A DNA stretch of 13,995 bases, from the NCBI GenBank assembly GCA_963743595.1, contig CAVURW010000209.1, forward strand, positions 1-13,995, given 5' to 3'. The position numbers and the translations under genes were made by a program. Position 1 is the stretch's first letter, and every line of letters starts with the position of its first letter. Below the pieces are notes generated by a model that saw only the letters and a program-made list of their open reading frames with translations, had not been told where the DNA came from and made no database searches. Shown piece by piece: positions 1-13,995 of the stretch. The stretch is from an uncultured Verrucomicrobiae bacterium. GTDB lineage: Bacteria > Verrucomicrobiota > Verrucomicrobiia > Methylacidiphilales > UBA1321.

Positions 1-110
1 ATGTTTTTGTTTAACCTATTCGTTCGGTTGGTCTTGCTAGTGGGCTCTTGGTTTCATAAGATATTTAGATGGTCATCCAAATGCCCCCATTTAACAATTG
101 CCCGAAAGAG

Positions 111-1436
111 CTACCTAGTTCGGTCGACTGACGAAACCATCTCTTCCTTCGAACGGAACAGGGAGGAGAACATCGGGTTGAGCACAAAGGTGTCGCCTTC
201 GGTCGCCCAACCTTGCCACTTTTGCCGAATCTCTTCGGCAGAATCCTTGGTGAGGTCCGGCACCACACAGGCTTTGTGATCCGAGAGCTCGGCGAGATCG
301 TAGACTCCCCAGCTGCTGCCATGGCCCGCTTTGTTTTTGTAACTCCACATCGTCCAACTCAGCCCCTCCTGGTTGTACGCATTGATCCCGAAATCCCAAG
401 CCTGAGCGCTGCCAAAGAAGTTAAACTCGCCGACAAACGCAGGCACCTTCCATTGGCTTTGCATCTCGTGGATGCCTTTGATGTCCCCGAGCGTCTGTGC
501 ATCGTTATCGGCTGTGTCCTTGGCTCCAAAATGATAGAAATGAAACGAGTAGACGACGTTGCGGTAACCACACTTTTGGGGGTCATTCAAGGAATGCCAA
601 TCCCACATCCCCTCCATGCAAATGATGTGGTCGGGATCGCTTGATCGTATTGCCGAGTAGATCTGCGCGTATTGAGCGCAAACGGCCTCGGAAGAGGGCT
701 CGGATAACCCTTTGGGAGCCGAGTTATTCGGTTCGTTTAAGAGATCGTACATCGCCACAGCGGGGTTGCCTCGATAATGCTCCGCGATGTGCTTCCAAAT
801 CGCGGCCGTCTCGCTCTTCCAGTGATCCTGTTTCCAGTAACCGGTCGAGGAGCCGTCTTGATTCGCAAGGGCGGGTAGGAACGCGTGAAAATCGACAATC
901 GTGTAGATCCCCTGCTTCCAGGCGTTCTCGATCAGCCAATCCATTTTCTTAAAACCGTCCGGGCGAAACGTGCCCGCTTCGGTCATCAGCGTGTCATAGG
1001 CAAACGTGAGCCGCACTGCGTTCATCCCGAGGTTCTTAATGTTATCGAGATCGTGGAGATTGAACCACGCGTCCTCGTAGGTACTGACTAGGTTCTCCGC
1101 ATCGGTGGAGCCGAACCGGTTTTCAAGCAAATGCCGCACCTCGTAATCGTAGCCGTTGTGGCCGGGGTTTGCGTCCCGCAACGTGCCTGAAGAATCCATC
1201 GGACACATCCAGTCTTGCCACTCCAGCCAGCCGCCCACATTCACCCCTCTGAGTTGCACCACTCTACCAGCACCGTGCCCGTCTCGAATCTGGACGCCGT
1301 TCGCGGCAAGAAACGCGCTGTCTTGCGCTGCTGCCGAAACCAACCCAAACGCCAAGATGAATACGACACCTTCCAAGAACTTGCAGAACTTCTGAACCAT
1401 ATGCAAAAGTGTACGGCTCCCTTCTTCAGAGCGCAT
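111..1436 (-). CDS. Secreted glycoside hydrolase family 5 protein (cellulase / glucan beta-glucosidase-like)
   Basis: 441-aa ORF. GH5 signature residues are readable: acid/base motif 'LLNEPNN', nucleophile motif 'FVGEFNFFG', and N-terminal 'RGVNVGGWLEWQDWM' resembling the GH5 'GGWLVLEPW' start of the barrel. A signal-peptide-like segment 'MVQKFCKFLEGVVFILAFGLVSAAAQ' begins at the second Met, so the ATG at 1400 is a plausible true start. No SD at either start. Confidence 0.85.
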   Translation of the reverse strand: MRSEEGSRTLLHMVQKFCKFLEGVVFILAFGLVSAAAQDSAFLAANGVQIRDGHGAGRVVQLRGVNVGGWLEWQDWMCPMDSSGTLRDANPGHNGYDYEVRHLLENRFGSTDAENLVSTYEDAWFNLHDLDNIKNLGMNAVRLTFAYDTLMTEAGTFRPDGFKKMDWLIENAWKQGIYTIVDFHAFLPALANQDGSSTGYWKQDHWKSETAAIWKHIAEHYRGNPAVAMYDLLNEPNNSAPKGLSEPSSEAVCAQYAQIYSAIRSSDPDHIICMEGMWDWHSLNDPQKCGYRNVVYSFHFYHFGAKDTADNDAQTLGDIKGIHEMQSQWKVPAFVGEFNFFGSAQAWDFGINAYNQEGLSWTMWSYKNKAGHGSSWGVYDLAELSDHKACVVPDLTKDSAEEIRQKWQGWATEGDTFVLNPMFSSLFRSKEEMVSSVDRTR

Positions 1437-1529
1437 CCCTCTTTGGAGTAAGATTTTCGGTTAATCCACGAACGCGCTTGGGAACCTGAAACTCCTGCCG
1501 TGGTTCGATTAGGTGATTGGGACACGAAG

Positions 1530-1973
1530 TTAATCGATGTCCGACTCAACAAGCATCCCAAGCAAAATTAGGGACTCTTGCCAGCCGAGATAGCACGACT
1601 CGCGAGGAATTGCTTCAGGCACTCCGTGTTGGGTTACGGTCATTTCGGTGCCACAGGCGACCTGCTTCAGTGTGACCGTCACTTCCATAACGCCCGGAAG
1701 GTTCGCGTCATCGAACCAATTGCTGTAGCGAATTCGCTCATACGGCACCAGTTCCAGGTACTCCCCGCCAAACGAGTGTCCTTGTCCTGTTCTAAAATTT
1801 GTGAACGACATCCTAAACTTGCCACCGACTTTGCCGTCCATTTCGTGCACCTTGCCGATAAATCCATTTGGCGGAAGCCACTTCGAGAGCGCATCGGCAT
1901 CGAGGAAGGCCTTGTAGACGTGCTCCGGCAATGTGCAGAGCACTCGGTGAAGTTGAATCGTGTGCGTACCCAT
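1530..1973 (-). CDS. SRPBCC superfamily protein, Activator-of-Hsp90-ATPase-homolog-1 (AHSA1/YndB)-like
   Basis: 147-aa ORF. Sequence pattern 'LHRVLCTLPEHVYKAFLDADALSKWLPP...GGKFRMSF...GEYLELVPYERIRYSNWFDD...VTVTL...GTEMTVTQHGVPE' matches the conserved layout of the bacterial AHSA1 domain (PF08327-like), which also fits the ~150-aa size. Confidence 0.8.
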   Translation of the reverse strand: MGTHTIQLHRVLCTLPEHVYKAFLDADALSKWLPPNGFIGKVHEMDGKVGGKFRMSFTNFRTGQGHSFGGEYLELVPYERIRYSNWFDDANLPGVMEVTVTLKQVACGTEMTVTQHGVPEAIPRESCYLGWQESLILLGMLVESDID

Positions 1974-2059
1974 AATTTACCCATGATCTACGCACAGAAC
2001 GGAGCTCGGCAACAAGCCAACTTTCCACCGCATGCACTGGCAAAGCCCGATAACCGGAA

Positions 2060-3625
2060 CTATTCCCACTCGATCGTCGCGGGTGGCTTAGAAGAAATGT
2101 CGTAGACGACGCGGTTGATGCCGCTGACTTCATTGGTGATTCGCGTCGCGATTTTCTCCAGCACAGCGTAATCGATCTTCACCCAATCGGCGGTCATTCC
2201 GTCCTGGCTCTCGACGATACGCACAGCGCAGGTCAATGCGTATGTTCGCTCGTCGCCTTGAACGCCTACACTGCGTACGGGTAATAGCACAGCGAATGCC
2301 TGCCACACCTTTTCGTACCAACCGCTTGCTTTCATTTCCTGGATCACGATGGCGTCGGCTTCACGCAAGATCGCTGTCTCCGCCGCGGAGACGGGGCCGA
2401 GAATGCGGACTGCAAGCCCAGGGCCAGGGAACGGATGACGCCACACCATCTCCTTCGGCAGGCCGAGCGTCTCGCCTAAATGCCGGACCTCGTCCTTAAA
2501 GAGTTGCCGAAGCGGTTCCACGAGCTTGAAGGCCATGTCTTCCGGCAGACCACCGACATTGTGATGGCTTTTGATCACAGAAGCCGGGTTATCACCGATG
2601 GCCACGCTCTCGATCACGTCAGGGTAGAGCGTGCCTTGCGCCAGGTACTTGGCATCGCCCACCTTTTTGGTCGCTTCGGAGAACTCTTCAATAAATTGGC
2701 GACCGATGATCTTCCGTTTCTGCTCGGGATCGCTAATGCCCGCTAACTTGGCAAGGAACCGCTCCCCTGCATCCACTGTGTGCAAATTCAGCTTCATGTT
2801 CCGCCCAAACACCTCTTCGACGCTCTGACGCTCGCCTTTTCGGAGCAGGCCGTTATCGACAAAAATACATTGGAGCTGCTCGCCGATCGCCTGGTGTAAA
2901 AGCGCGGCTGCCACACTGGAATCGACGCCGCCACTGAGGCCGAGAATGACTCGATCCGACCCGACTTGTTCCTTGATCGCTGCGCAGCTCGATTCGATGA
3001 AGCTATCCATCGTCCACGTCGGTTGCGCGCCGCATATGTTGTAGACGAAGTTCGCCAAGATCTGCAGGCCCTTCGGCGTGTGCGCAACTTCTGGGTGAAA
3101 CTGCAGGCCGTAGAGACGTCGGGCTGAGTCTTCGATCACCGAGAACGGCGAGTTACTGGAATGTGCAACCACTCGGAAGCCTGGCGGCAACGTCTTCAAC
3201 GCGTCGCCGTGGCTGTTCCAAATCTCCAGCTCATTCGGGAGATCGCCCAGCAGCAAGGATCGCATCTCCGGGGCCACGTCGGGCTTGGTATCCTCACGCA
3301 GCATGTAACCGCGCCCATACTCCCGGCGATCACTGCGCGCGACATCGCCACCGAGCATCGCGCCGAAAAGCTGCATGCCGTAACAGACCCCTAAAATCGG
3401 TAGGCCAGCCTCGAAAATGGCGGGGTCGGGCCGGGGCGCTTTCGGCGCGTAAACGCTGGCAGGACCGCCGCTGAAAATAATCCCGGCTGGTTCGCGGCTC
3501 TTGAGTTCGCTGATGGGCGTATCGTAACGCAAGATTTCGGAGTAAACTTTGAGTTGGCGAATGCGTCGGGCAATGACTTGGGTGTACTGCGAACCGAAAT
3601 CGAGAATGAAGATTTTGTCTGCCAT
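2060..3625 (-). CDS. guaA: GMP synthase (glutamine-hydrolysing)
   Basis: 521-aa ORF. The N-terminal class-I glutamine amidotransferase domain starts with the canonical '[20 protein letters not shown]'. The PP-loop ATP pyrophosphatase motif 'SGGVDSSV' is present. The C-terminal dimerisation domain ends in 'PPATIEWE', typical of GuaA. Confidence 0.97.
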
Positions 3626-3697
3626 AAAAAAGGAAGCGGGGATGCTAATACAGAAGCGAAGTTTATGCCACCTCGAACGCTCCTTTCTTTACAGTTT

Positions 3698-5509
3698 CTA
3701 TTTGTTTCCGGGGGTGGGGGAGACGGGCTTTGACGGGGCGCTCTCCTCTAGATCGTCGTAGGCCGCATCGGTAAAGTGCCGTCGATATTTCTCCGGAATG
3801 AGCGGGGTCAGATCTATCGCCGTGCCTTCAATGGGATCGACCAAAGAAATTCGCAAGGGATTCATGTGCTCCAGAACGACGAGACGGAGTTTAAGCGATT
3901 TCTGATGCATCTTCGCAATCAAATAGGGCACCTGCTCCGTGGTGTACGCGCCGTAACCCCAAAACGGCGTGCATTCCAGCGGCGTTTTTTTGATCGGTGC
4001 GGTGGGCGAGTAACCGGTTGCATTTTTCACCTGAATGAGACCCGCGAAGTTTGCGGTGCCGAGCAGACAGAAGGGCACCTGATGACTTGCTTGATTTTCT
4101 GTAGGGAGCAGTCGGTCGATAATCGGGACGATCATTTCGCCGGGCTTCAGGTACTTACGCACCTCTGCCCAGTAGGTGTAGACCTGCCCTGACATGACGA
4201 GATCACGATCTTCCCGGGAATGATTGATCGCAGGGACGGGAGCATACGGTAGGGGCGCGAGGAAGACGATCGCGCCGAACCGGAGCATCGTCATTCGGAA
4301 ATTGCGGGAGAATCCGGGCCGACGCGTCACTAGGAAAAGATGGAAAAAGAACTCGAATTGCATGATTTCGCGGAACGGCCAGCGGAAGCTGTTTAGGAGC
4401 GGCAGATGCGACATCACTTCCGAAATCCAAAACGGGCGCGAGATGAAAATGACCAGCGTGGCGAGGATAAAGACCAGGAGTTGCTCGAATTTGCTGAATC
4501 GTCGGAAGCTCAGCAGTGCCGGGGCGATACACCATGATGCGGCGCACCCCAGGTAACTTTCTACAGGAAGCACATCCATGTGCTTGGCGGTCGGGTCGTT
4601 AAAAATATGAAGCGAGGTCCAGCCTCCTGCAAAAAGGGAGACCGGGAAGTAAGCAAGCGGCATCGCCAGGCCGGAAATCGACCGAGGATCCAATCCGGAG
4701 GAACGCGTGCTCGCGTAGTATCCAGCAACCATATCGACAAGCAGAGGCGAAATCAGAACGACCGAGAGGATCGAGCCCAGACCCCAGATCAGCAGTGGAC
4801 GGATCGACTGCGATTGCGAGGCGTAGGTCACCGTAAAAAGCGAAAGAATGAGGCCCGTGGAGATGGTCATTAACGGGTGGCCGCCCAGAATTTGATGGAT
4901 CTGAAAGAGTGCCACCAAGCTGATTCCCGTGCGGAGCGACGGCGATAGAATCGCCAGCACCAACCACGGCACGGCGCTGTGATTATTGAGAAAGATATTC
5001 CAGCTGGCGGTGACATTCAGAACATAAAGATTGAAGTTAAAGCTAAGCGCATAAAAGAGGATCATGTTGTCGTGGATGCTCAACGAATACTTCTTCTTCA
5101 GAAACCGGGAAACCGCGACGAACCCCAGCATGGCAATTTGCAGGTTCAAAAAAGCGACGATATCGAACGAGTAGATGAGCAGCCCGAAATTTGAGAGGTA
5201 GGCCACCAGGAAAATGAACGGGTGCCAGTTAAACAATCCAGGATCGGCCAGCAGATTATAATTTCCGCCGAAGAGGTAGTCGGAGATGAACGGCGAGTGC
5301 CCCTCGCCCAGGTGCCGCCCGATTTCCGCGATGATCCCGAGACCGCCCGTTAACGTGTCGTCCGTCAGGAAGTAGCAGGGCCGCCAGATTTGAAGGAGAA
5401 TGAAGCCCAGCGTGTTGAGAATCGCAGCGCGTATGTAGATGTTTTTGGGCCAGAGAAACTTCAGCAACTGCATAGCGCAGGAGAGTACCGGAACGGGTCC
5501 GGTTGTCAA
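3698..5509 (-). CDS. Polytopic integral membrane protein with C-terminal soluble domain; possible GT-C-fold glycosyltransferase (ArnT/PMT/YfhO-like)
   Basis: 603-aa ORF with more than 10 hydrophobic helical segments over the first ~430 aa, followed by a ~170-aa hydrophilic C-terminal domain. The first extracytoplasmic loop after TM1 contains an acidic 'FLTDDT' motif, reminiscent of the DD/DE motif of GT-C glycosyltransferases. The functional call is tentative. An alternative start at the Met of 'MQLLKF' (coordinate 5473) is possible. Confidence 0.75.
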   Translation of the reverse strand: MTTGPVPVLSCAMQLLKFLWPKNIYIRAAILNTLGFILLQIWRPCYFLTDDTLTGGLGIIAEIGRHLGEGHSPFISDYLFGGNYNLLADPGLFNWHPFIFLVAYLSNFGLLIYSFDIVAFLNLQIAMLGFVAVSRFLKKKYSLSIHDNMILFYALSFNFNLYVLNVTASWNIFLNNHSAVPWLVLAILSPSLRTGISLVALFQIHQILGGHPLMTISTGLILSLFTVTYASQSQSIRPLLIWGLGSILSVVLISPLLVDMVAGYYASTRSSGLDPRSISGLAMPLAYFPVSLFAGGWTSLHIFNDPTAKHMDVLPVESYLGCAASWCIAPALLSFRRFSKFEQLLVFILATLVIFISRPFWISEVMSHLPLLNSFRWPFREIMQFEFFFHLFLVTRRPGFSRNFRMTMLRFGAIVFLAPLPYAPVPAINHSREDRDLVMSGQVYTYWAEVRKYLKPGEMIVPIIDRLLPTENQASHQVPFCLLGTANFAGLIQVKNATGYSPTAPIKKTPLECTPFWGYGAYTTEQVPYLIAKMHQKSLKLRLVVLEHMNPLRISLVDPIEGTAIDLTPLIPEKYRRHFTDAAYDDLEESAPSKPVSPTPGNK

Positions 5510-5561
5510 AACCGGGGGCGATTGTCGTTCGTGATAAACCTGTTAGCGTGATTAGACTCTT

Positions 5562-6020
5562 ATGTTTGATCACAAGATCGTTATGGCCCAAATCCAGTTA
5601 GATCGCACCATGGAGTACGTCTCAATCATGACCCTGCTTCCTACGGAGCAACGTCGTCAGATGATGGTTCGAATTGGTCTGGCGATTGACAAGATGGCCA
5701 CGCTGAACCGAGAGGATTTTGGAGACAGTCCTTTTATCGAACAACGCCTTCTGGAATTTCGGTCAGCATGCGAATCGGTTTCCAATCTCTCTTCAACGGG
5801 TAGAGTTTTAGACGGGAAAGAACCCTGTCCAGTTTGCTGCTCGCCCATAAAAAAACCGGGGGCGACTCCCTTAGAAATATTTTATTCCACGAATTACTAT
5901 TGCCCCGAGTGTATTAGGCCGATCGAGGAGGCCAGTGCAAGACTGAATGCTGCTGAGGGCTTTAACGAGGCTGCTTACCTGGCATTTAGAGTAACCTTGA
6001 CCAAGAAACGCCCATCCTGA
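5562..6020 (+). CDS. Small hypothetical protein with C-terminal CxxC-x18-CxxC zinc-ribbon (paralog A)
   Basis: 152-aa ORF. It is paralogous to the next ORF at roughly 30-35% identity by eye. Shared blocks include 'MTLLPTEQRRQM' vs 'MTLLPTDQRQQL', '...LNRE.FG' vs '...LNRCFFG', and 'LDGKEPCPVCCS...PGA...CPEC' vs 'LDGNAECSVCGT...PGA...CSPC'. The amino-acid-level conservation despite DNA divergence supports real coding. Confidence 0.65.
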   Translation: MFDHKIVMAQIQLDRTMEYVSIMTLLPTEQRRQMMVRIGLAIDKMATLNREDFGDSPFIEQRLLEFRSACESVSNLSSTGRVLDGKEPCPVCCSPIKKPGATPLEIFYSTNYYCPECIRPIEEASARLNAAEGFNEAAYLAFRVTLTKKRPS

Positions 6021-6022
6021 TT

Positions 6023-6433
6023 ATGCTCGATCTCAACCACCCGCAGACCAAGTGGATTTTTCGTGTCTCTCATGAAAAGGATGCGATTCACGAATTGACG
6101 CAAATGATGACCTTACTGCCGACAGACCAACGGCAACAACTGCTGGAACGTGTGCTCATCCACATCGAACGAATTCGGGAGCTAAACCGTTGTTTCTTCG
6201 GAGGTAAGTCAGATAACGAAGGAGCCATCGTGGAGCTGGAGAAGGCCTGTCGGAAACTCGCCAGCCTACCCTCGCAGAAAAGTTTTCTGGATGGCAACGC
6301 GGAGTGCTCCGTTTGCGGAACGATGATCGAGCCCCCCGGTGCCTACAACATTGTCCTTTGTTCTCCCTGCTGGCAGGGTTCATTATACGCTCTGGAATCC
6401 GTTGGAAGTCATTTTGGAACGAACGTCATCTGA
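6023..6433 (+). CDS. Small hypothetical protein with C-terminal CxxC-x15-CxxC zinc-ribbon (paralog B)
   Basis: 136-aa ORF starting 2 nt after the stop of paralog A (TGA-tt-ATG). Same architecture as paralog A: a helical N-terminal half carrying the 'MTLLPTDQRQQ' block, then a four-Cys zinc ribbon. A hairpin 'ccgtgt-aaatcc-acacgg' lies immediately after its stop (6434-6451). Confidence 0.65.
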   Translation: MLDLNHPQTKWIFRVSHEKDAIHELTQMMTLLPTDQRQQLLERVLIHIERIRELNRCFFGGKSDNEGAIVELEKACRKLASLPSQKSFLDGNAECSVCGTMIEPPGAYNIVLCSPCWQGSLYALESVGSHFGTNVI

Positions 6434-6470
6434 CCGTGTAAATCCACACGGCTGCTTCAGCCCCGTAACG

Positions 6471-6505
6471 AAAAAGGGTGCGTGACCGTTTCCAGCCACG
6501 CACCC
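6471..6505 (-). terminator. Rho-independent terminator for the flotillin-like gene (minus strand)
   Basis: A 9-bp GC-rich stem (gggtgcgtg 6476-6484 / cacgcaccc 6497-6505) with a 12-nt loop. On the minus strand it is followed directly by the T-run read from 6475-6471 (UUUUUCGUU). It lies 20 nt downstream of the TAA stop at 6525-6527. Confidence 0.55.
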
Positions 6506-6524
6506 GATTTCTCATCCGACGACG

Positions 6525-8519
6525 TTACACCATTTGATTCGGGTCAGTCGGAACACCGGGGAGGATGACGCCTCCGTCTTCGCTCGCGGGTTCAGGCACG
6601 CTAGGCACGGTGGGCATGGCGGTCGTGGCTGTAATCACATCCCCGCTACCCACGCGATCTTTCAGCGTCGTGCCCAGAAGAGCCTCGAGCAAGCCGCCAC
6701 CTGCTGCACCGCCACCGCTGGTGACGGAGACGTCCGGTACGATGCGCACATTGCGTTCACCCACGATCTGCATGATTTGCAGTGCGGCGAAGGCTTGGCC
6801 TCCGAGTGCTTCCACACCGGCGCGATAGGCTTGCGCCTTGGCCAAACCGGTCGTGCGAATGGCTTCGGCTTGACCCAAGGCGCGGAGGCGAATGGCTTCC
6901 GATTCACCCTGCGCGGCCTTGACGTTGGCCTGAGCATTCAGCTCAGCGATCATCACGCCCTGCTCGCTGGCGACGACCTGTTGTTGAATGTTCGCGATGG
7001 AGGTCTCACGCACCAGCAACTGCCGTTGTTTCTGCGCGGCTTCCTGCATCTCGTAGGTCTCCTTCTCTTCCTCTGCGAGTTTACGATCCGTCTGCGTCTT
7101 CATCAGCGCTTCCGGAGGCGTGATATCGCCGATCAACGTATCGACCGCTTGCACGTTATACTCGCCGAGAGCCACGCGTATGAATTGGGCCGCTTCCGAC
7201 TGGCGCTCACTGCGGGCCCGTAAGAAATCGAGCACCGTGTAGTATTGCGCGGAGTTCCGGAAGTAGTTGCCGACGATCGGTTGCAGCACGTGATCGACAA
7301 GATTCTGCATCGAGCCGACACGGGAGATGACACGGGGAGCGTCCATGGCACCCACGTGGATGATCTGCGCGACGTCCAGGTTAAAGGCGAATCCATCGCG
7401 GGAACGCACAGTAATGCTGCTCAGTTTCGCATCGAGATTGTGCGCCTCCGATTGGCGAGCCCAGTTCAATACAATATTGGTGGTGGGCACGCGTTCTACA
7501 CGCATGATCTTCGGGTTGATGGGGTGCTTGCCGGGGTAGAGTGGCGAGACCCACACGCCCTTATGGCCGGGCTCCACCAGATCGCCGTGCAGGAATTCCT
7601 TCCCGGAGACGTCGATGTGCGCTTCCCCAACGAAGGAGATGACCACACCCACGTGACCGATGGGAATTTCCAGCATTTCCACCTGTTCCACTTGGACGAA
7701 CCAGGGGTTCAGATTCCACGTACCAGAGAGCAGCACCTGCTGTTGCAAACCACGTTGGCCGCCGTTGTTCAGGTAGGCCTGAGGATTCTGGAAGTTATCG
7801 TGATCCGAGATCATGGGGCCGGCGATTTCGCCAGCAGGAATCGGCTTTCCATCCATGGTGGTGACCACTCCCACGCGATTCGACGCCACCTCATACACGT
7901 AGAACTGTTCCGGCACCATGCCGAACTTGGCGGCAGAGGCGGAGGTAATGACGTTGAAGAGCGCCTGGTTGATCCTGTACGTACCTGCGGTGAGGATGCT
8001 GAGCTGGCGACCTTTTTCGCCACCATTCAGCAAGAACGCGCGGGCGTCCTGGAAGTTGTTACAATCGACGAATTTAGCCAGGATCCGGTCGGAAGGAATG
8101 GAGCAGCCATCGTTGGCAAGAACCAACGCAATTTCGCCGGCGGGCACTTCCACCAGAGGAGCCTTAAAGACCTCGTACATGAAGAACCAGTAGCCGAAAT
8201 GGATACCTGGCCCGAGCGTTTCAGCTTGGTAACCAGCCTCGCCATTGAGCGCGACGAGTTGGCCGGGCGGCAACGATTTGGCTGAGAATTTCTTCACGAC
8301 GACGCCGACCTGCCGCTCATGAATCCGTACAGCGCCCGTAACGAGCGGTAGGAAAATGAGGCAGACGATCAACACGACCACCACGGCGAAGAGGATGAGC
8401 ATCCACACGTGTGAGTACGAGGAGGAGTTGTCCTCGCTGGTGACCTGTGCAAGAGTAACTAACGGGTGATTCAGTGAGCCCAGGAGGCTACTGACCGACA
8501 TGGCAAGGGTGCCGTTCAT
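6525..8519 (-). CDS. Flotillin-like SPFH/Band-7 domain membrane protein (YqiK/FloT-like)
   Basis: 664-aa ORF. An N-terminal hydrophobic anchor 'WMLILFAVVVVLIVCLIFLPLV' is followed by a long SPFH-type region. The C-terminus is a Glu/Ala/Gln-rich coiled-coil 'flotillin' segment ('EAAQKQRQLLVRE...ELNAQANVKAAQGESEAIRLRALGQAEAIR...AKAQAYRAGVEALGG') and then a Gly/Ala/Pro/Thr low-complexity tail. Alternative starts exist at coordinates 8501 and 8402. The convergent terminator is annotated separately. Confidence 0.88.
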   Translation of the reverse strand: MNGTLAMSVSSLLGSLNHPLVTLAQVTSEDNSSSYSHVWMLILFAVVVVLIVCLIFLPLVTGAVRIHERQVGVVVKKFSAKSLPPGQLVALNGEAGYQAETLGPGIHFGYWFFMYEVFKAPLVEVPAGEIALVLANDGCSIPSDRILAKFVDCNNFQDARAFLLNGGEKGRQLSILTAGTYRINQALFNVITSASAAKFGMVPEQFYVYEVASNRVGVVTTMDGKPIPAGEIAGPMISDHDNFQNPQAYLNNGGQRGLQQQVLLSGTWNLNPWFVQVEQVEMLEIPIGHVGVVISFVGEAHIDVSGKEFLHGDLVEPGHKGVWVSPLYPGKHPINPKIMRVERVPTTNIVLNWARQSEAHNLDAKLSSITVRSRDGFAFNLDVAQIIHVGAMDAPRVISRVGSMQNLVDHVLQPIVGNYFRNSAQYYTVLDFLRARSERQSEAAQFIRVALGEYNVQAVDTLIGDITPPEALMKTQTDRKLAEEEKETYEMQEAAQKQRQLLVRETSIANIQQQVVASEQGVMIAELNAQANVKAAQGESEAIRLRALGQAEAIRTTGLAKAQAYRAGVEALGGQAFAALQIMQIVGERNVRIVPDVSVTSGGGAAGGGLLEALLGTTLKDRVGSGDVITATTAMPTVPSVPEPASEDGGVILPGVPTDPNQMV

Positions 8520-9064
8520 ATAGAATATACCGACGCTACAGTCTGCCCGCTAACCTAAGGAGGTCAGGCGAGCCGACATCTTTTCGAGCGAGGTGATCGT
8601 GAGGCGTATCGCGTGTCTCTCAGAGACTGCGGTGCACCACGGTTTTCGCCCTCCCACATGCCTACGGAGTTAGCTGACGGGCTGGATCTTGGAAGTGATC
8701 CTCTGGCGGTTTTTCCACCAGATTTGCCCCATCCTTTGGGCGGGTTTTGGATTGAGATTCACCGGGTGCTTGGCCGGGAAAAGTCAGGTCCGAAATGCTC
8801 AAAGGAGTTTGGTTCCCCCGCGCTCGATCTTGGAACAGGATCGACGCTTAGGCGGCTGACCTGACGAGTTCTACATGCAAACAAGGTACTGGAAGAGTTA
8901 CAAAAATGCAAGTTGACACGGCTCTCAAGCTGGTCGGGAAACGTGTGAGAACCGGGCGAGAGCAGGAGTGTACTTAATTAGATATACTAATATTAGAAGA
9001 TCTCGTCTGCCGCCCGCGCCAACCTGTTATCGACGAATCGCCCGCCTCCCGCTACGTTTTCCCC

Positions 9065-10195
9065 ATGGGCCCGCGCAGGATCGTTTGGTTTCTTTGGAGC
9101 ATCGCCGCCTTGGCGCTGATCATCTGGGCTCGCGAGAGCTTTTTTCGTGAGTCGCTCCTGGAGCTCCAGTGGCGTCGAACGGGAGTGCCCACAGCGGCAT
9201 TTGGCGGGCTTTCCATCGATAAAGAGGGGCAAGTAGCGCTCTCCTATAATAACCAGTTTTCCGTCTACGACATCAAATCGGCTCAATGGCAGACGGTTGC
9301 GACAACTATTCCAGCCGATTATGTTCCCCGCACGAATCTCTCGAATGGGTTGATTCTTTGCCTCAGAAACTCTTCCGGCTACACCTCGGTGACTTATGGC
9401 GGTGGTCGCTCGCTAGTCAGCGGCTCGATTGTGACGACAAGCATATCGACGACGATATCCGTGCCCTCCCTCTCGCCTGCACCGAAGACGCCTCAAATCT
9501 ACCTAATAGATGAGGACAAGAAAACGGGTAGTTACGCCAAGGGGCCTAACTACGACTTCTCCGGTAGCCCCTTTATTGCGCTCAAAGACGGACGGGTGCT
9601 TTTTATCGATTCTTCCAAGAACTGCAGCGTTTATGACCCGGTGGCTGGTACATGGACAGATGCACCGGGAACCGCTCTTGGGACCCCAATCCTCACGTTA
9701 ATGGAGGATGGACGCGTTTTCCTGATGACTGGAAGTGACGCTTCCATTTTCGATCCTAAAACGATGAAATGGAGCGCCGTTAGCCCACTACCAACCGCTA
9801 TGGGAATCGTTCGCGGGGGAGTGAGTCTTGCAGATGGGAAGGTCATGGCGCTAGGGGATCATGGCCGTTCCAATTACGATCCGCGCCCCAATTCGTGGGA
9901 TCCGGTCGCGCCCGGCCATTACTCGGATACACCGTATTGCGGACGCTTACGTTCAGGTCGGGTGGTTTATTTAGGACTGGAAACACGGCCCGGACTATTT
10001 GGGCCCGCTTCGGACATCTTGTGCAAATTGTTTGATGAAAAAAGCAAGCTGGATCAAGAGGTTCGCCTGCCTCCTGAAGTTCAATACCTCTACGGAGCGC
10101 TGATGCTACCCAACGGTAAATTTATGGTGATGGGAATAAGCCAATCCTCAAATCCATGCTGTTGGTTAGTCGACGAATTGCCAGCAGAGAAGTAG
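9065..10195 (+). CDS. Signal-anchored Kelch-repeat beta-propeller protein (paralog 1)
   Basis: 376-aa ORF with an N-terminal hydrophobic segment 'IVWFLWSIAALALIIW'. It shows recurring blade motifs of the Kelch type: 'LKDGRVLFID...YDPVAGTWTDAPG', 'LMEDGRVFLMTG...FDPKTMKWSAVSPLP', 'LADGKVMALGD...YDPRPNSWDPVAPG', 'LRSGRVVYLG'. A NanM-like mutarotase or another Kelch propeller is possible; function is unassigned. Confidence 0.8.
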   Translation: MGPRRIVWFLWSIAALALIIWARESFFRESLLELQWRRTGVPTAAFGGLSIDKEGQVALSYNNQFSVYDIKSAQWQTVATTIPADYVPRTNLSNGLILCLRNSSGYTSVTYGGGRSLVSGSIVTTSISTTISVPSLSPAPKTPQIYLIDEDKKTGSYAKGPNYDFSGSPFIALKDGRVLFIDSSKNCSVYDPVAGTWTDAPGTALGTPILTLMEDGRVFLMTGSDASIFDPKTMKWSAVSPLPTAMGIVRGGVSLADGKVMALGDHGRSNYDPRPNSWDPVAPGHYSDTPYCGRLRSGRVVYLGLETRPGLFGPASDILCKLFDEKSKLDQEVRLPPEVQYLYGALMLPNGKFMVMGISQSSNPCCWLVDELPAEK

Positions 10196-10205
10196 TGTAG
10201 CGTTC

Positions 10206-11375
10206 ATGAAACCGGGCTTGGCTACGCGACTAACACGAGATGCGATTCTCCTCGCCGTCGTTTTGTTGGGAGCCGTGCTCATCCGGTCCGCCCTCTTACC
10301 CGAGCAGATGAACATCGTCAAAACGGGCGACCTAAAAGCTCCCATGCTGGATGGTGCGTGGTTGCGTCTAGATGACGGGCGGTTCTTTGTTTTTGGTGCC
10401 ACCGCACCCCAAAGTCCGAATGAGACCTCGGAGAGTGGCACTGCGGAAATTTATGATCCGAAACGGGGCGAATGGTCGATGGTGCCCGGAAAGCTGAACA
10501 ACTTCCAGTTCGCCTCAGCGCTTTCCGGCGGCAGGGTGATTTGCGGCTTCTCAAATAAGACCGACGACTACTACCAGCTCTACAATACGACCGATAAGAA
10601 TTGGTCCAACATTCCCACGCCCCCCGGCAAGCTCGCCACGTACACGGCCCTGGATTGTCTTCAACTCAAATCGGGCGAGCTCCTCTTTGTCGGAGACTCC
10701 TCGGCAGTCGAGCAGATGGGCGAGAAAACGTGCGCGGAATATAACCTGAAGACGCGAACCTGGAAAAAAGTGGGCGATCTTATCCATATCCCCTCCCAAT
10801 CGTTCGGCATGATTTTGGAAGACAACGGAAAGGTGCTGAAATTTGGGATCGACGGCGAGGAAGAATTCGATCCCGCGAGCTACACGTGGAGCAGCAGCGT
10901 GCAAAGAGTTTCCATGCTGCCCGGACAACCCTTCATCCGCAGCCTAAACGAGAACGCCGAGACCGTCAGTTGGAACGTGAACACCCACGCGGAGCTTAAC
11001 CTCGGAATCCGCTCCTCCAATGCGCCCGCCACCATCTTAAAAAGTGGCCGCATCTGGGGCTGCGGCGGATTTATCCCGACCCACCAACTTCTCGTGCCGA
11101 TCCCGCTGATTTGGTTGAAAACCGAACCGGATGCCTTGCTCTCAGACAGTTGGTTGTTCGACCCGGCCACTAACCACGTTCAGTTCGGCTCGTTACTGCC
11201 AGAGCCCCGGTCCAATCACACCTTAATCACACTCGATGACGGACGCGTGGTCGTCTGCGGCGGCGTTTTGATGGCCGCCTTTAACCCGAACAAATCCAAC
11301 GACCCGATCAACCCGAGCGTCTTTAACACCGTTGCGACGAGAACCTGTTTTATCGTGAATCCCGAAGGTCAGTAG
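10206..11375 (+). CDS. Signal-anchored Kelch-repeat beta-propeller protein (paralog 2)
   Basis: 389-aa ORF that begins 10 nt after paralog 1 stops, consistent with an operon. It has an N-terminal hydrophobic segment 'ILLAVVLLGAVLI' and the same blade motifs: 'LDDGRFFVFG...YDPKRGEWSMVPG', 'LKSGELLFVGD...YNLKTRTWKKVGD', 'LEDNGKVLKFG...FDPASYTWS', 'LDDGRVVVCGG'. Confidence 0.8.
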   Translation: MKPGLATRLTRDAILLAVVLLGAVLIRSALLPEQMNIVKTGDLKAPMLDGAWLRLDDGRFFVFGATAPQSPNETSESGTAEIYDPKRGEWSMVPGKLNNFQFASALSGGRVICGFSNKTDDYYQLYNTTDKNWSNIPTPPGKLATYTALDCLQLKSGELLFVGDSSAVEQMGEKTCAEYNLKTRTWKKVGDLIHIPSQSFGMILEDNGKVLKFGIDGEEEFDPASYTWSSSVQRVSMLPGQPFIRSLNENAETVSWNVNTHAELNLGIRSSNAPATILKSGRIWGCGGFIPTHQLLVPIPLIWLKTEPDALLSDSWLFDPATNHVQFGSLLPEPRSNHTLITLDDGRVVVCGGVLMAAFNPNKSNDPINPSVFNTVATRTCFIVNPEGQ

Positions 11376-11381
11376 GCAACG

Positions 11382-12142
11382 GCAACGTGACGTTGCATCC
11401 AATAACCAGCGTGACGCTGGACCCTGTAGCCCTTTCGCTATCACGATGCCCCCTGTCTCTAGGCCCAGAGGCTAGCGTGACATTGGACCGAGTAGCGCTT
11501 TTCCTTTTCACGATGCCCTGTCTTTAGGCCCGGAGGCCAGCGTGACGCTGGACCCGGTAGCGATTTCGTTTTCACGATGCCCCCTGTCTTTAGGCCCGGA
11601 GGCCAGCGTGACGCTGGACCCGGTAGCGATTTTCCTTTTCACGATGCCCCCCTGTCTTTAGGCCCGGAGGCCAGCGTGACGCTGGACCCGGTAGCGATTT
11701 CGTTTTCACGATGCCCCCCCTGTCTTTAGGCCCGGAGGCCAGCGTGACGCTGGACCCGGTAGCGATTTCGTTTTCACGATGCCCCCCCTGTCTTTAGGCC
11801 CGGAGGCCAGCGTGACGCTGGACCCGGTAGCGATTTCGTTTTCACGATGCCCCCCTGTCCTTAGGCCCGGAGGCCAGCGTGACGCTGGACCCGGTAGCGA
11901 TTTCGTTTTCACGATGCCCCCCTGTCCTTAGGCCCGGAGGCCAGCGTGACGCTGGACCCGGTAGCGCTTTTCCTTTTCACGATGCCCCCCCCTGTCCTTA
12001 GGCCCGGAGGCCAGCGTGACGCTGGACCCGGTAGCGATTTCGCTTTCACGATGCCCCTGTCCTTAGGCCCGGAGGCCAGCGTGACGCTGGACCCGGTAGC
12101 GCTTTTCGTTTCCACGATGCCCCCTGTCTTTAGGCCCGGGGG
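11382..12142 (+). repeat. Tandem array of 11 head-to-tail copies of a 65-70-bp GC-rich unit (consensus ~CCAGCGTGACGCTGGACCCGGTAGCGATTTCGTTTTCACGATG(C)nTGTCTTTAGGCCCGGAGG), no spacers
   Basis: Direct reading: the hairpin core 'ccagcgtgacgctgg' recurs at 11406, 11472 (degenerate 'ctagcgtgacattgg'), 11537, 11603, 11671, 11739, 11807, 11874, 11941, 12011 and 12076. The periods are 66, 65, 66, 68, 68, 68, 67, 67, 70 and 65 bp. A degenerate half-unit 'gcaacgtgacgttgc' sits at 11387-11401, right after the Kelch-2 stop. The central units are identical and the edge units are degenerate. The poly-C tract per unit is 5,3,5,6,7,7,6,6,8,4,5 C's. The period is not a multiple of 3, so the array is non-coding. 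Confidence 0.95.
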
Positions 12143-12328
12143 TCGGCTTCAATGGTAGCCCAGCTCAAGGAGCGTAGCGACGCAGGGCTGGGTGTCATCA
12201 AACAAGCGTTTGCGGGCTGTAAGCTCGCGTCAAACCGTTTGATCGCGAACATGTCTTGAGCCCGCTTCGAATTTACACTTAATCTGTTAGCACTGAGGAC
12301 ATTGTCAGTTGGGCGATGAAGAAGATCG

Positions 12329-12838
12329 TTATTTGCCATCAGTTTTTCGATTTATAAATAGATCAACAACATCGATTGCATGTCCGATTTGGTGATCATC
12401 TTCGGTATCGCTTTCTTCTAAGACCCACCACAACCAGAGCTTTAAGGCGTTGAGTTCGTTTGCATCTAAACCCGAAAGCCGACTCGCAGATTCCATGAGA
12501 TCTTCGATTTTCTCGACGCGGTGCGCCAGGGACCAAAAGATGAAACTAACTATCGAGCTATCGGCTGCGTTTAGCCGCAACGTCGCTACCATTATCTTTG
12601 GAAGAAAATAACAAAATGCATCAGGTGTCAAAAAGCCTGATGCACCCCCTAAACGGTCGAGAGTTCGAATATCCACCACGCTCCAGTCGAGCGTGTCCAG
12701 CGCTATGATATCTGCCAAATCGGAATCAGAGATTTGTTTGGGTTGCGTCGGATCTTTGAAATAGAGGTGTTTAGGTCGAGGTCGGGCGACAAATGCCTTT
12801 TCGATTAGCGAAATCAATTCCCGCCTGTCACCGTTCAT
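12329..12838 (-). CDS. Hypothetical cytoplasmic protein, translationally coupled to the upstream degP/htrA-like gene
   Basis: 169-aa ORF with no signal peptide. Its ATG (12836-12838) overlaps the TAA stop of the upstream protease gene by one base (TAATG on the minus strand). It is noticeably lower in GC (~42-45% by spot counts) than its neighbours (~57%). No domain recognised by eye. Confidence 0.65.
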   Translation of the reverse strand: MNGDRRELISLIEKAFVARPRPKHLYFKDPTQPKQISDSDLADIIALDTLDWSVVDIRTLDRLGGASGFLTPDAFCYFLPKIMVATLRLNAADSSIVSFIFWSLAHRVEKIEDLMESASRLSGLDANELNALKLWLWWVLEESDTEDDHQIGHAIDVVDLFINRKTDGK

Positions 12839-13995
12839 TAATGCATCTTCGCCGCAGAGAGATTCACAAAACCGCCCGTGCCATCGTTGCCGTGGCTGAT
12901 CAGAAGCAAAACGCTTTCGCCCGGCTTTACGGTTTTCGCGAGGTCGTCAAAGTCCTTGGCGGTGGTGATGTCGTGGCCCGGACCGCGATTGACCCAGGCT
13001 TTTAAGATGAGGTCGCCGACTTGCACCTGGAGGTCTTTCGCCAGGCAATCATCGCTTAATGAAATGACGACCGCAGCGGGCTTTTTGTTCTCGGGATCGA
13101 TCTTGAATTTGTCCCGTGTTTTGTCGTTGAGATCATCCACCTTGATGCCCGAAACAACGGTTGCCTCGGTTGGCGTCGCTGGATGCTCGGCCGTCGGAAT
13201 CTGTTCCGGCTGACCCACACCACCCTTCGCGACCGCCTCCGTCAGTTGTCCGATTTTCACGCTGACGGTTGCTTGACGCCCATCACGAATGTAGCCGAGC
13301 GTGATCTGGTTCCCAATGGGGATTTGCGCGACCAACAACCGAAGTGCCGCTGGGCTGGTGACATGGTGACCGTCTACGGAAGTGATGAAATCGCCGGCGT
13401 GCAGTCCGGCATTTTGCGCGGGAGATCCATCCTCCACGGCATCGACCAGCGCCCCTTCATCCGTATCCAGACCCAATTGCTGGCGGACGTCATCCGACAA
13501 CTCTTTTTCATAGCGCACACCCAGGTAGCCGCGAACTAAGTAGCCATTCTTGATGAGGTCCACCACGGCGTACTTCGCGAGATTGCTCGGAATCGCAAAG
13601 CCGACGCCCATATTCACGCCGGTCGATGACGCGATCGCGGCGTTGATTCCCACCAGCTCGCCCTGACAATTCACCAGCGCTCCACCGGAATTGCCGGGGT
13701 TGATCGCCGCTGTCGTTTGAATGAAATCTTCATAGGACGACTCATTCAAATTCCGGCTCTTGGCACTGACAATTCCATTGCTGAAGGAATCGTTCAGGTT
13801 AAACGGATTCCCGGCGGCAAAGACCTGCTCGCCGATCTTGAGATTCTCAGAATCGCCCCATGGCAACGCGGGCAGTCCAGTGACATCGATTTTGATGACG
13901 GCCAAATCGACCGATTCATCCGAAGCGATGACCCGCGCCGAAAACTTGCGGTGATCGGTGAGCCGTACTTGAATCGATTCAGCTCCGGCCACGAC
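12838..13995 (-). CDS. DegP/HtrA-family periplasmic serine endoprotease with two PDZ domains (5' end beyond window; partial)
   Basis: The trypsin-like domain shows the catalytic Asp context 'DLAVIKID' and the catalytic Ser motif 'GNSGGALVN'. It is followed by two PDZ-like segments ('...GALVDAVEDGSPAQNAGLHAGDFITSVDG...' and '...AAVVISLSDDCLAKDLQVQVGDLILKAW...'). The ORF is open to the window edge, so the N-terminus including the catalytic His is expected upstream of 13995. Confidence 0.93.
   Translation of the reverse strand, partial: VVAGAESIQVRLTDHRKFSARVIASDESVDLAVIKIDVTGLPALPWGDSENLKIGEQVFAAGNPFNLNDSFSNGIVSAKSRNLNESSYEDFIQTTAAINPGNSGGALVNCQGELVGINAAIASSTGVNMGVGFAIPSNLAKYAVVDLIKNGYLVRGYLGVRYEKELSDDVRQQLGLDTDEGALVDAVEDGSPAQNAGLHAGDFITSVDGHHVTSPAALRLLVAQIPIGNQITLGYIRDGRQATVSVKIGQLTEAVAKGGVGQPEQIPTAEHPATPTEATVVSGIKVDDLNDKTRDKFKIDPENKKPAAVVISLSDDCLAKDLQVQVGDLILKAWVNRGPGHDITTAKDFDDLAKTVKPGESVLLLISHGNDGTGGFVNLSAAKMH

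Follow-up and report, generated by a model that had tools for sequence, protein, structure and literature searches.

What kind of repeat fills the gap between two convergent genes of an uncultured Verrucomicrobiae bacterium, and how might it have been built? This question is raised by a stretch of 13,995 nucleotides (NCBI GenBank assembly GCA_963743595.1, contig CAVURW010000209.1, positions 1 to 13,995 of the forward strand), referred to below as the window, in which eleven units of 65-70 bp are lined up head to tail behind a Kelch-repeat gene. The original prediction, made from the sequence alone, considered this array to be unlike the clusters formed by repetitive extragenic palindromes (REPs) and bacterial interspersed mosaic elements (BIMEs). 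The analysis presented here leads to the opposite view. With a probability of roughly 0.7, the array represents a cluster, amplified locally, of a REP-type extragenic palindrome, the Verrucomicrobiota counterpart of a tandem BIME/REP cluster. The beginning of its unit matches exactly a family of hairpins dispersed at the 3' ends of genes, and tandem arrays of the same hairpin are found at other loci.

Each unit of the array is composed of a 25-nt head, made of the hairpin CCAGCG-TGA-CGCTGG followed by ACCC and GGTAGC, and of a pyrimidine-rich tail of about 42 nt (GATTTCGTTTTCACGATG-Cn-TGTCYTTAGGCCCGGAGG). In every unit, the initial 25-27 nt (CCAGCGTGACGCTGGACCCGGTAGC) match the dispersed hairpin family exactly. 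When one genome per species of the Genome Taxonomy Database (GTDB) was scanned with AGCGTGACRYTGGACCNNGTAGC, 24 loci were recovered for a chance expectation of about one match, a back-of-envelope figure drawn from the size of the collection. Four metagenome-assembled genomes (MAGs) of Verrucomicrobiota account for 21 of these 24 loci, namely Tous-C9LFEB, HJP_bin11, Methylacidiphilales bin.034 and Opitutia Tous-C4FEB. A BLAST comparison of two units with the fetched loci (designated below by L numbers) restricted the similarity to nt 1-27 of the unit, often with 100% identity, and the 42-nt tail was matched in none of these loci. A pattern describing the tail (TCACGATGCCCN{0,6}TGTCYYTAGGCCC) gave 0 matches in the Joint Genome Institute (JGI) metagenomes. 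No match to the array was found in the phage and plasmid collections, and the one match among viral contigs looks like chance or coding sequence. The restriction of the tail to the window locus fits with flanking DNA that was amplified together with a single palindrome, and this is how the tail is read here, as its probable origin. The locus-specificity that the original prediction implied does not extend to the head, which is dispersed in Verrucomicrobiota and of which a second subfamily member stands directly before the array.

The diversity of the family was assessed by a census based on the 7-nt core CGTGACG, which identified 67 full hairpins in 284 kb of fetched loci. The arms CCAGCG/CGCTGG followed by ACCC, as in the window array, are found in 44 copies. 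The other copies combine GCAACG/CGTTGC with ATCC (5 copies), CCAACG/CGTTGG with ATCC (3 copies), GCAGCG/CGCTGC with ACCC (2 copies) and CAAGCG/CGCTTG with ACCC (1 copy), or are other single variants (12 copies). The two-sided compensatory changes observed among these variants indicate that the stem is maintained. Mismatches of the G-T and A-C types number 7 and 2, respectively, in the hairpin variants, numbers too small to indicate which strand folds.

The position of the head is equally characteristic. Among 85 strand-specific matches, 22 have a co-oriented open reading frame (ORF) of at least 100 codons ending no more than 40 nt upstream, as compared with 7.7% of random positions, and six copies in this test directly abut a TAG stop. 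Heads starting straight after a TAG stop were observed in L010 (111), L011 (6161), L019 (7563), L025 (4309), L031 (2004), L032 (8128) and L033 (3349 and 5988). Such copies read TAG-CCA-GCG-TGA and consequently display two in-frame stops, two codons apart; in some other copies, part of the 5' arm is duplicated after the TAG. Either the TAG is part of the element, or the element targets TAG.

The entrance of the window array follows the same layout. The leader, as read from the sequence on the + strand (11376-11405), comprises a duplicated 5' arm GCAACG (11376-11381), the hairpin GCAACG-TGA-CGTTGC (11382-11396), ATCC (11397-11400) and an AATAA linker (11401-11405), and comes immediately after the TAG stop of the Kelch gene. 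Positions 11382-11400 correspond to the head-family variant GCAACGTGACGTTGCATCC. The succession of TAG, duplicated arm and hairpin is also present in dispersed copies, for example in L020 (TAG-CCAGCG-CCAGCGTGACGCTGG). By BLAST against the fetched loci, the leader GGCAACGTGACGTTGCATCCA is matched over 21/21 positions in L031 and L032, and over 19-20/20 positions in L023, L017, L033 and L022. The original prediction had counted this segment as part of the array, starting at 11382. Its placement in a convergent intergenic gap is correct, with 186 bp (for a claimed ~190) between the end of the array and the stop of the DUF6714-like gene at 12329, and its left boundary has to be moved: 11382-11405 is a separate variant palindrome, GCAACGTGACGTTGC plus ATCC and then AATAA, and the units themselves start at 11406.

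One tandem array was detected in the window by Tandem Repeats Finder (TRF), at 11406-12139, with a period of 68, 11.0 copies, 92% matches, 3% indels and a score of 1172, in agreement with the eleven spacer-less copies originally announced. Cut at the palindrome, it is resolved into directly abutting units of 66, 65, 66, 68, 68, 68, 67, 67, 70, 65 and 67 bp, extending from 11406 to 12142 on the + strand as delimited by TRF, unit splitting, alignment and consensus folding. The mean column identity among the 11 aligned units is 92%, and the differences lie mostly in the poly-C run (3-8 C) and in the T-rich segment. Unit splitting and alignment distinguish three blocks, all on the + strand. Units 1 and 2 (11406-11536, that is 11406-11471 and 11472-11536) are the furthest diverged and, as seen by folding, the hairpin of unit 2 has decayed to CTAGCG/CATTGG, with two G-T pairs and one C-A mismatch. 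Units 3 to 8 constitute a homogeneous core (11537-11940, that is 11537-11602, 11603-11670, 11671-11738, 11739-11806, 11807-11873 and 11874-11940), in which units 5 and 6 are identical to each other and units 7 and 8 likewise, and a stretch of about 214 bp at the centre of the array (units 4-7) is purely periodic. Units 9 to 11 (11941-12142, that is 11941-12010, 12011-12075 and 12076-12142) vary in the T-rich segment and have 8, 4 and 5 C, respectively, in their poly-C run. The identical centre and degenerate edges that had been noticed from the sequence are thus borne out, and this pattern fits an ongoing homogenisation, as proposed at the time, or a recent one.

Within the window, the palindrome itself is confined to the array. 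The 15-nt sequence CCAGCGTGACGCTGG has 11 sites in the window, every one of them within the array, and its 22 matches over both strands compare with 0.39 expected from shuffles of the window. The perfect 15-nt hairpin CCAGCG-TGA-CGCTGG is present in 10/11 units, and GGTAGC follows the hairpin and its ACCC in 11/11. All 11 heads share the same orientation, with the TGA loop and the 3' ACCC flank on the + strand. The GC content is 0.63 in the array, for about 0.55 in its surroundings. The ORFs that overlap the array do not exceed 73 aa, and the period of the array is not a multiple of three; a coding repeat was considered and rejected, and so were iterons, as the original prediction had already stated. 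Past the last unit, a fading homology can be followed over 12143-12147 on the + strand (GTCGGC versus GCCAGC, within a repeat-family copy at 12104-12147 at 91%), which may tentatively be regarded as the possible remnant of a twelfth head. No further repeat module was found by BLAST of 12143-12328 against all fetched loci, and the idea that the right flank contains a relic of a 'GTCATCCCGAGCGTAG...' module was dropped, this search having returned nothing significant.

The number of units deserves a separate discussion, since an assembly artefact would leave the repeat in existence and make its unit number or order a creation of the assembler, or its poly-C lengths homopolymer errors; at the extreme, one or two units would remain. 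The Logan k=31 contigs of run ERR11571142 stop at window positions 11411 (L001) and 12214 (L002), most unit differences are located in a homopolymer, and the purely periodic centre is presumably beyond the resolution of short reads. L001 breaks off 6 nt inside unit 1 and L002 72 nt past the array, in both cases in sequence unique within the window, so that these end points are not fully explained by repeat length or by simple repeat collapse; a coverage drop or a heterogeneous population is possible. The mosaic substitutions that distinguish the units are not what an assembler loop would create, these same contigs confirm both flanks independently, and comparable head arrays exist in contigs of other samples, the names of which suggest a long-read assembly (L033, 'ctg104493_2x_l'). 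An artefact is therefore judged very unlikely as an explanation of the array, even if the exact copy number of 11 rests on the assembly; short reads would not have fixed the number across the ~214-bp periodic centre.

Tandem arrays of the head are not limited to the window. Five loci were recovered when metagenomes were scanned for pairs of direct heads at a spacing of 35-65 nt. The array of L031, which begins at a TAG stop, has a period of 82 and 2.3 copies, each unit comprising a head, a linker and an inverted GCAACG variant. In each of L028, L029, L030 and L032, two direct heads lie at a distance of 58-81 bp from one another. Further arrays were revealed among the relatives of the host, which were recognized by means of the guaA gene of the window. 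Its best match is 80% identical and the named nearest relatives are MAGs of Methylacidiphilales and Verrucomicrobiota; judged by this gene, the window appears to fall within Verrucomicrobiota. In the nearest relative, L033 (80% guaA identity), an array with a period of 146 and 3.9 copies (93% matches) occupies 5988-6585. It begins exactly at the guaA stop, TAG|CCAGCGTGACGCTGGACCC, and each of its units alternates the head CCAGCGTGACGCTGGACCC with the variant CCAACGTGACGTTGGATCC; altogether, L033 holds 10 head copies in 13 kb. Other intergenic arrays were observed in L036 (6190-7625), a related contig of the group with 73-76% guaA identity, with 88 bp x 3.0, 87 bp x 2.3 and 265 bp x 1.9. Within the 87-bp unit lies CCGTCATCCCGAGCTTGTCGAGGGATC, a module that is also found in MAG Tous-C9LFEB, where inverted repeats of it flank heads.

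Outside direct arrays, the head enters into larger combinations. Inverted head doublets of 90-115 bp, resembling REPINs, occur in L023, L024 and L026 (MAG bin.034), and in MAG Tous-C9LFEB the head is nested in elements of about 150 bp between inverted repeats of 31-35 nt (TGCCCGATCCCTCGACTACGCTCGGGATGAC ... GTCATCCCGAGCGTAGTCGAGGGATCGGGCA). Taken together, the inverted doublets and the nested heads make the head family a mosaic, BIME-like one. The same two observations could also be invoked for a miniature inverted-repeat transposable element (MITE) with terminal inverted repeats, mobilised in trans and repeatedly inserted in or next to itself, in which case the window array would be an insertion pile-up: the Tous-C9LFEB heads do lie inside bounded elements, and the inverted pairs of bin.034 do bound elements. 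This alternative is improbable for the array itself. The window units have neither terminal inverted repeats nor target-site duplications and all point in one direction, the window contains no transposase gene, and the identical neighbours (units 5/6 and 7/8), together with the unique tail that all units have in common, argue in favor of a local duplication.

Perfect 25-nt heads were also seen in MAG contigs labelled as Clostridia and Nitrospina, at 5135-5159 in L006 and at 2771-2788 and 5028-5052 in L021, the Nitrospina-labelled contig holding two head copies. Mis-binning, horizontal spread or a wider distribution of the family could each be at the origin of this observation.

The interpretation as a REP cluster is supported by several points of comparison with known systems. 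In E. coli, BIME-2 elements are found in multiple copies in tandem, with good conservation inside a given locus and a copy number that differs from strain to strain (PMC3333891). The window array resembles BIME-2 and the atypical BIMEs (Ton-Hoang et al. 2012, PMC3333891) by its short extragenic palindromes placed behind genes or between convergent genes, by its multiple tandem copies, very similar within one locus, by its membership of a dispersed family and by an amplification thought to be ongoing. Di Nocera et al. 2013 (PMC3733652) describe REP clusters in which single palindromes are tandemly reiterated along with flanking DNA, and report that REPs are abundant in a verrucomicrobium, Opitutus terrae, with the families GTAG-18 and GTAG-19. 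The head shares with the GTAG/CGTC-tagged REP super-families a 6-bp stem, a 3-nt loop, complementary stem changes and a location downstream of ORFs, and differs from them in having no tag at the foot of its hairpin; in the array unit, the GTAG lies 5 nt 3' of the hairpin. The head sequence is absent from the supplements of this paper and head-encoded peptides are absent from its lists of intragenic REPs, so that, as far as can be checked from these supplements and lists, Figure 1 aside, the head family is not among the families it describes. A sequence search of the literature returned one unrelated paper and likewise no description of the head family. The unit does, in essence, match a family of the REP type, though the family itself was found nowhere described.

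REPINs, the inverted REP doublets mobilised by REP-associated tyrosine transposases (RAYTs), are a further point of reference (Bertels & Rainey 2011, PMC3116915). The doublets of L023, L024 and L026 are similar to them, and a related lineage (L034) has a Y1_Tnp gene that is RAYT-like; unlike a REPIN, the window array has no inverted partner. With CRISPR arrays, the window array has in common a short palindromic sequence regularly spaced in intergenic DNA. In contrast to CRISPR, the 42 nt between palindromes are themselves repeated, and the palindrome occurs as dispersed single copies behind many genes. A CRISPR array was rejected on the grounds that there are no unique spacers (the inter-palindrome DNA is 92% identical) and no Cas domains in the window, as the original prediction had correctly argued.

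Several observations weigh against the REP-cluster interpretation, and the first of them concern the architecture of the unit. The alternating REP/iREP order of BIME-2 is replaced in the window by units that are all direct, each with one hairpin and a 42-nt unstructured linker. Additional differences from BIME-2 are a head with no GTAG abutting its stem and no linked RAYT, an unrelated sequence and a Verrucomicrobiota host. A second hairpin, GC-T-GA...TC-GC, follows GTAGC in 20 of 26 dispersed copies selected by pattern (at least 7 fully complementary stems, mean z -2.1), and it is absent from the array units of the window (z ~0). Most copies chosen without GTAG in the pattern lack this tag (ACCCAATA, ACCCATAG, ACCCGATT). 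Folding of a single unit does not rise above the level of shuffled sequences (z -0.4 on the + strand, -0.3 on the - strand), and the alignment fold of the array yields the head hairpin only, with no internal covariation. Other points relate to distribution. About 22 kb of host sequence (the window plus L002) hold no head copy outside the array locus, and a high head copy number can at most be presumed for the host itself. The relatives with 73-76% guaA identity have no head within 6-21 kb, which makes the distribution patchy.

The last objection is that no RAYT could be linked to the head family. A Y1_Tnp gene of 144 aa (PF01797, 27.7 bits) lies beside guaA at 5371-5917 of L034, in a relative with 76% guaA identity. 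Its protein carries HLH and YILQNP motifs, the former HUH-like, which we take to be RAYT-like. This gene is flanked by GTAG-tagged REPs (GTAGGCGCCGATCTCCGAGCGGCGC, GTAGGCGCCGATCTCCGAGCGGCGCTGCC) that are distinct from the head family, a further departure from the REPIN model. No Y1_Tnp gene was found in the window or in the head-bearing loci, and a tblastn search with the L034 protein against all loci and the window produced no additional copy.

A quite different possibility is that the array is a dedicated functional device, its 67-bp units being a multi-copy protein-binding platform or a battery of small RNAs or terminators selected for that role. Across several Verrucomicrobiota MAGs, the head hardly varies while the sequence next to it does, which suggests sequence-specific recognition, and the array has the same orientation as the upstream operon. 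Moreover, a terminator scan flagged nine units in which a weak 5-bp alternative hairpin, CGCTGGACCCGGTAGCG, precedes a T-rich run (ATTTCGTTTT), with 13 sites for 2.4 expected. This alternative hairpin competes with the stronger head hairpin, the 3' sequence of which is ACCCGG. The sole robust structure of the unit is the hairpin with a 6-bp stem and a 3-nt loop at its start, which can be extended across the unit junction into an imperfect hairpin of 28 nt; pieces of two units fold only marginally better than shuffles (z -2.0 and -1.6). A G-quadruplex array on the minus strand was discarded by eye, each unit offering two or three G-runs with a fourth about 45 nt away. No match to the array, nor to the dispersed copies in 8 loci, was obtained in Rfam 15 at E<=1, the sole match in the window being a c-di-AMP riboswitch located elsewhere, and no promoter-like site was detected in the array. 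These negative results, the folding of the unit at the shuffled level, the loss of the hairpin in edge unit 2, which goes against selection on every unit, and the absence of the tail from the fetched loci and the JGI metagenomes, which leaves conservation of the full unit unsupported, make a dedicated function of this kind distinctly unlikely. The other head arrays also differ in their periods (58-146 bp) and in their linkers, so that spacing is not conserved.

The genes on either side provide little help in following the locus through evolution. Upstream, the second Kelch-repeat gene (10206-11375, + strand, 389 aa, TAG stop at 11373-11375) was identified from the ORF list and Pfam Kelch matches. 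Downstream, the convergent DUF6714-like gene (12329-12838, - strand, 169 aa, stop at 12329-12331) was identified from the ORF list and a match to Pfam PF20461 of 24 bits, below the 27-bit cutoff. In a collection of 5.8 billion proteins, the Kelch-2 protein matched only itself at E<=1e-20 and the DUF6714-like protein only itself at E<=1e-5; the window makes up the whole 13,995-bp contig. As neither has a homologue besides itself, no comparison of orthologous loci is possible. Elsewhere in the window, the c-di-AMP riboswitch RF00379 (8644-8864, - strand, 56.1 bits, E 5.7e-11, full-length model) is located directly upstream of a gene encoding a 664-aa SPFH/Band 7 protein (6525-8519, - strand). 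To our knowledge, an SPFH-domain protein is not a typical gene downstream of this riboswitch.

On the basis of the REP-cluster interpretation, a scenario can be proposed for the origin of the array. A single CCAGCG-TGA-CGCTGG hairpin with its ACCC would initially have stood behind the stop of Kelch-2, beside a variant copy of the same family. This hairpin, along with about 42 nt of the DNA next to it, would then have been duplicated head to tail, up to 11 copies, by replication slippage, by unequal exchange or by a strand transfer of the Y1-transposase type, as proposed for BIMEs. For the latter, models based on TnpA_REP strand transfer or on a rolling circle have been put forward (PMC3333891). 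Continuing exchange would hold the central copies identical, and the edge copies would decay. Any function would probably be that of REPs in general. The co-oriented hairpins, located in the 3' untranslated region of the Kelch operon on the + transcript, could slow down 3'-5' exonucleases and partly stop read-through, and the array block could buffer or insulate convergent transcription or supercoiling between Kelch-2 and DUF6714.

A bolder version of this scenario, which for the moment appears rather unlikely, would give the leading part to an enzyme. The 19-nt head (hairpin plus ACCC) would be the substrate of a conserved Verrucomicrobiota enzyme, be it a HUH transposase similar to RAYTs or some other nuclease or recombinase specific for single strands, which would place the element at TAG stops and build head-to-tail arrays by strand transfer or by an amplification of the rolling-circle type. 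If this were true, the window array would have been produced recently, and at unusual length, by an amplification system that is live, in a phylum for which no such system has been studied.

Many bacteria are already known to have extragenic palindromes and tandem clusters of them, and the array opens no new category. What is apparently undescribed so far is the head family, CCAGCGTGACGCTGGACCC and its covarying variants, which is common to several Verrucomicrobiota lineages and sits unusually tight against stop codons. This family repeatedly yields tandem arrays that break short-read assemblies and that could serve as variable-number markers. If its cognate enzyme were found, the family would offer a system outside Proteobacteria for studying the amplification of REP clusters.

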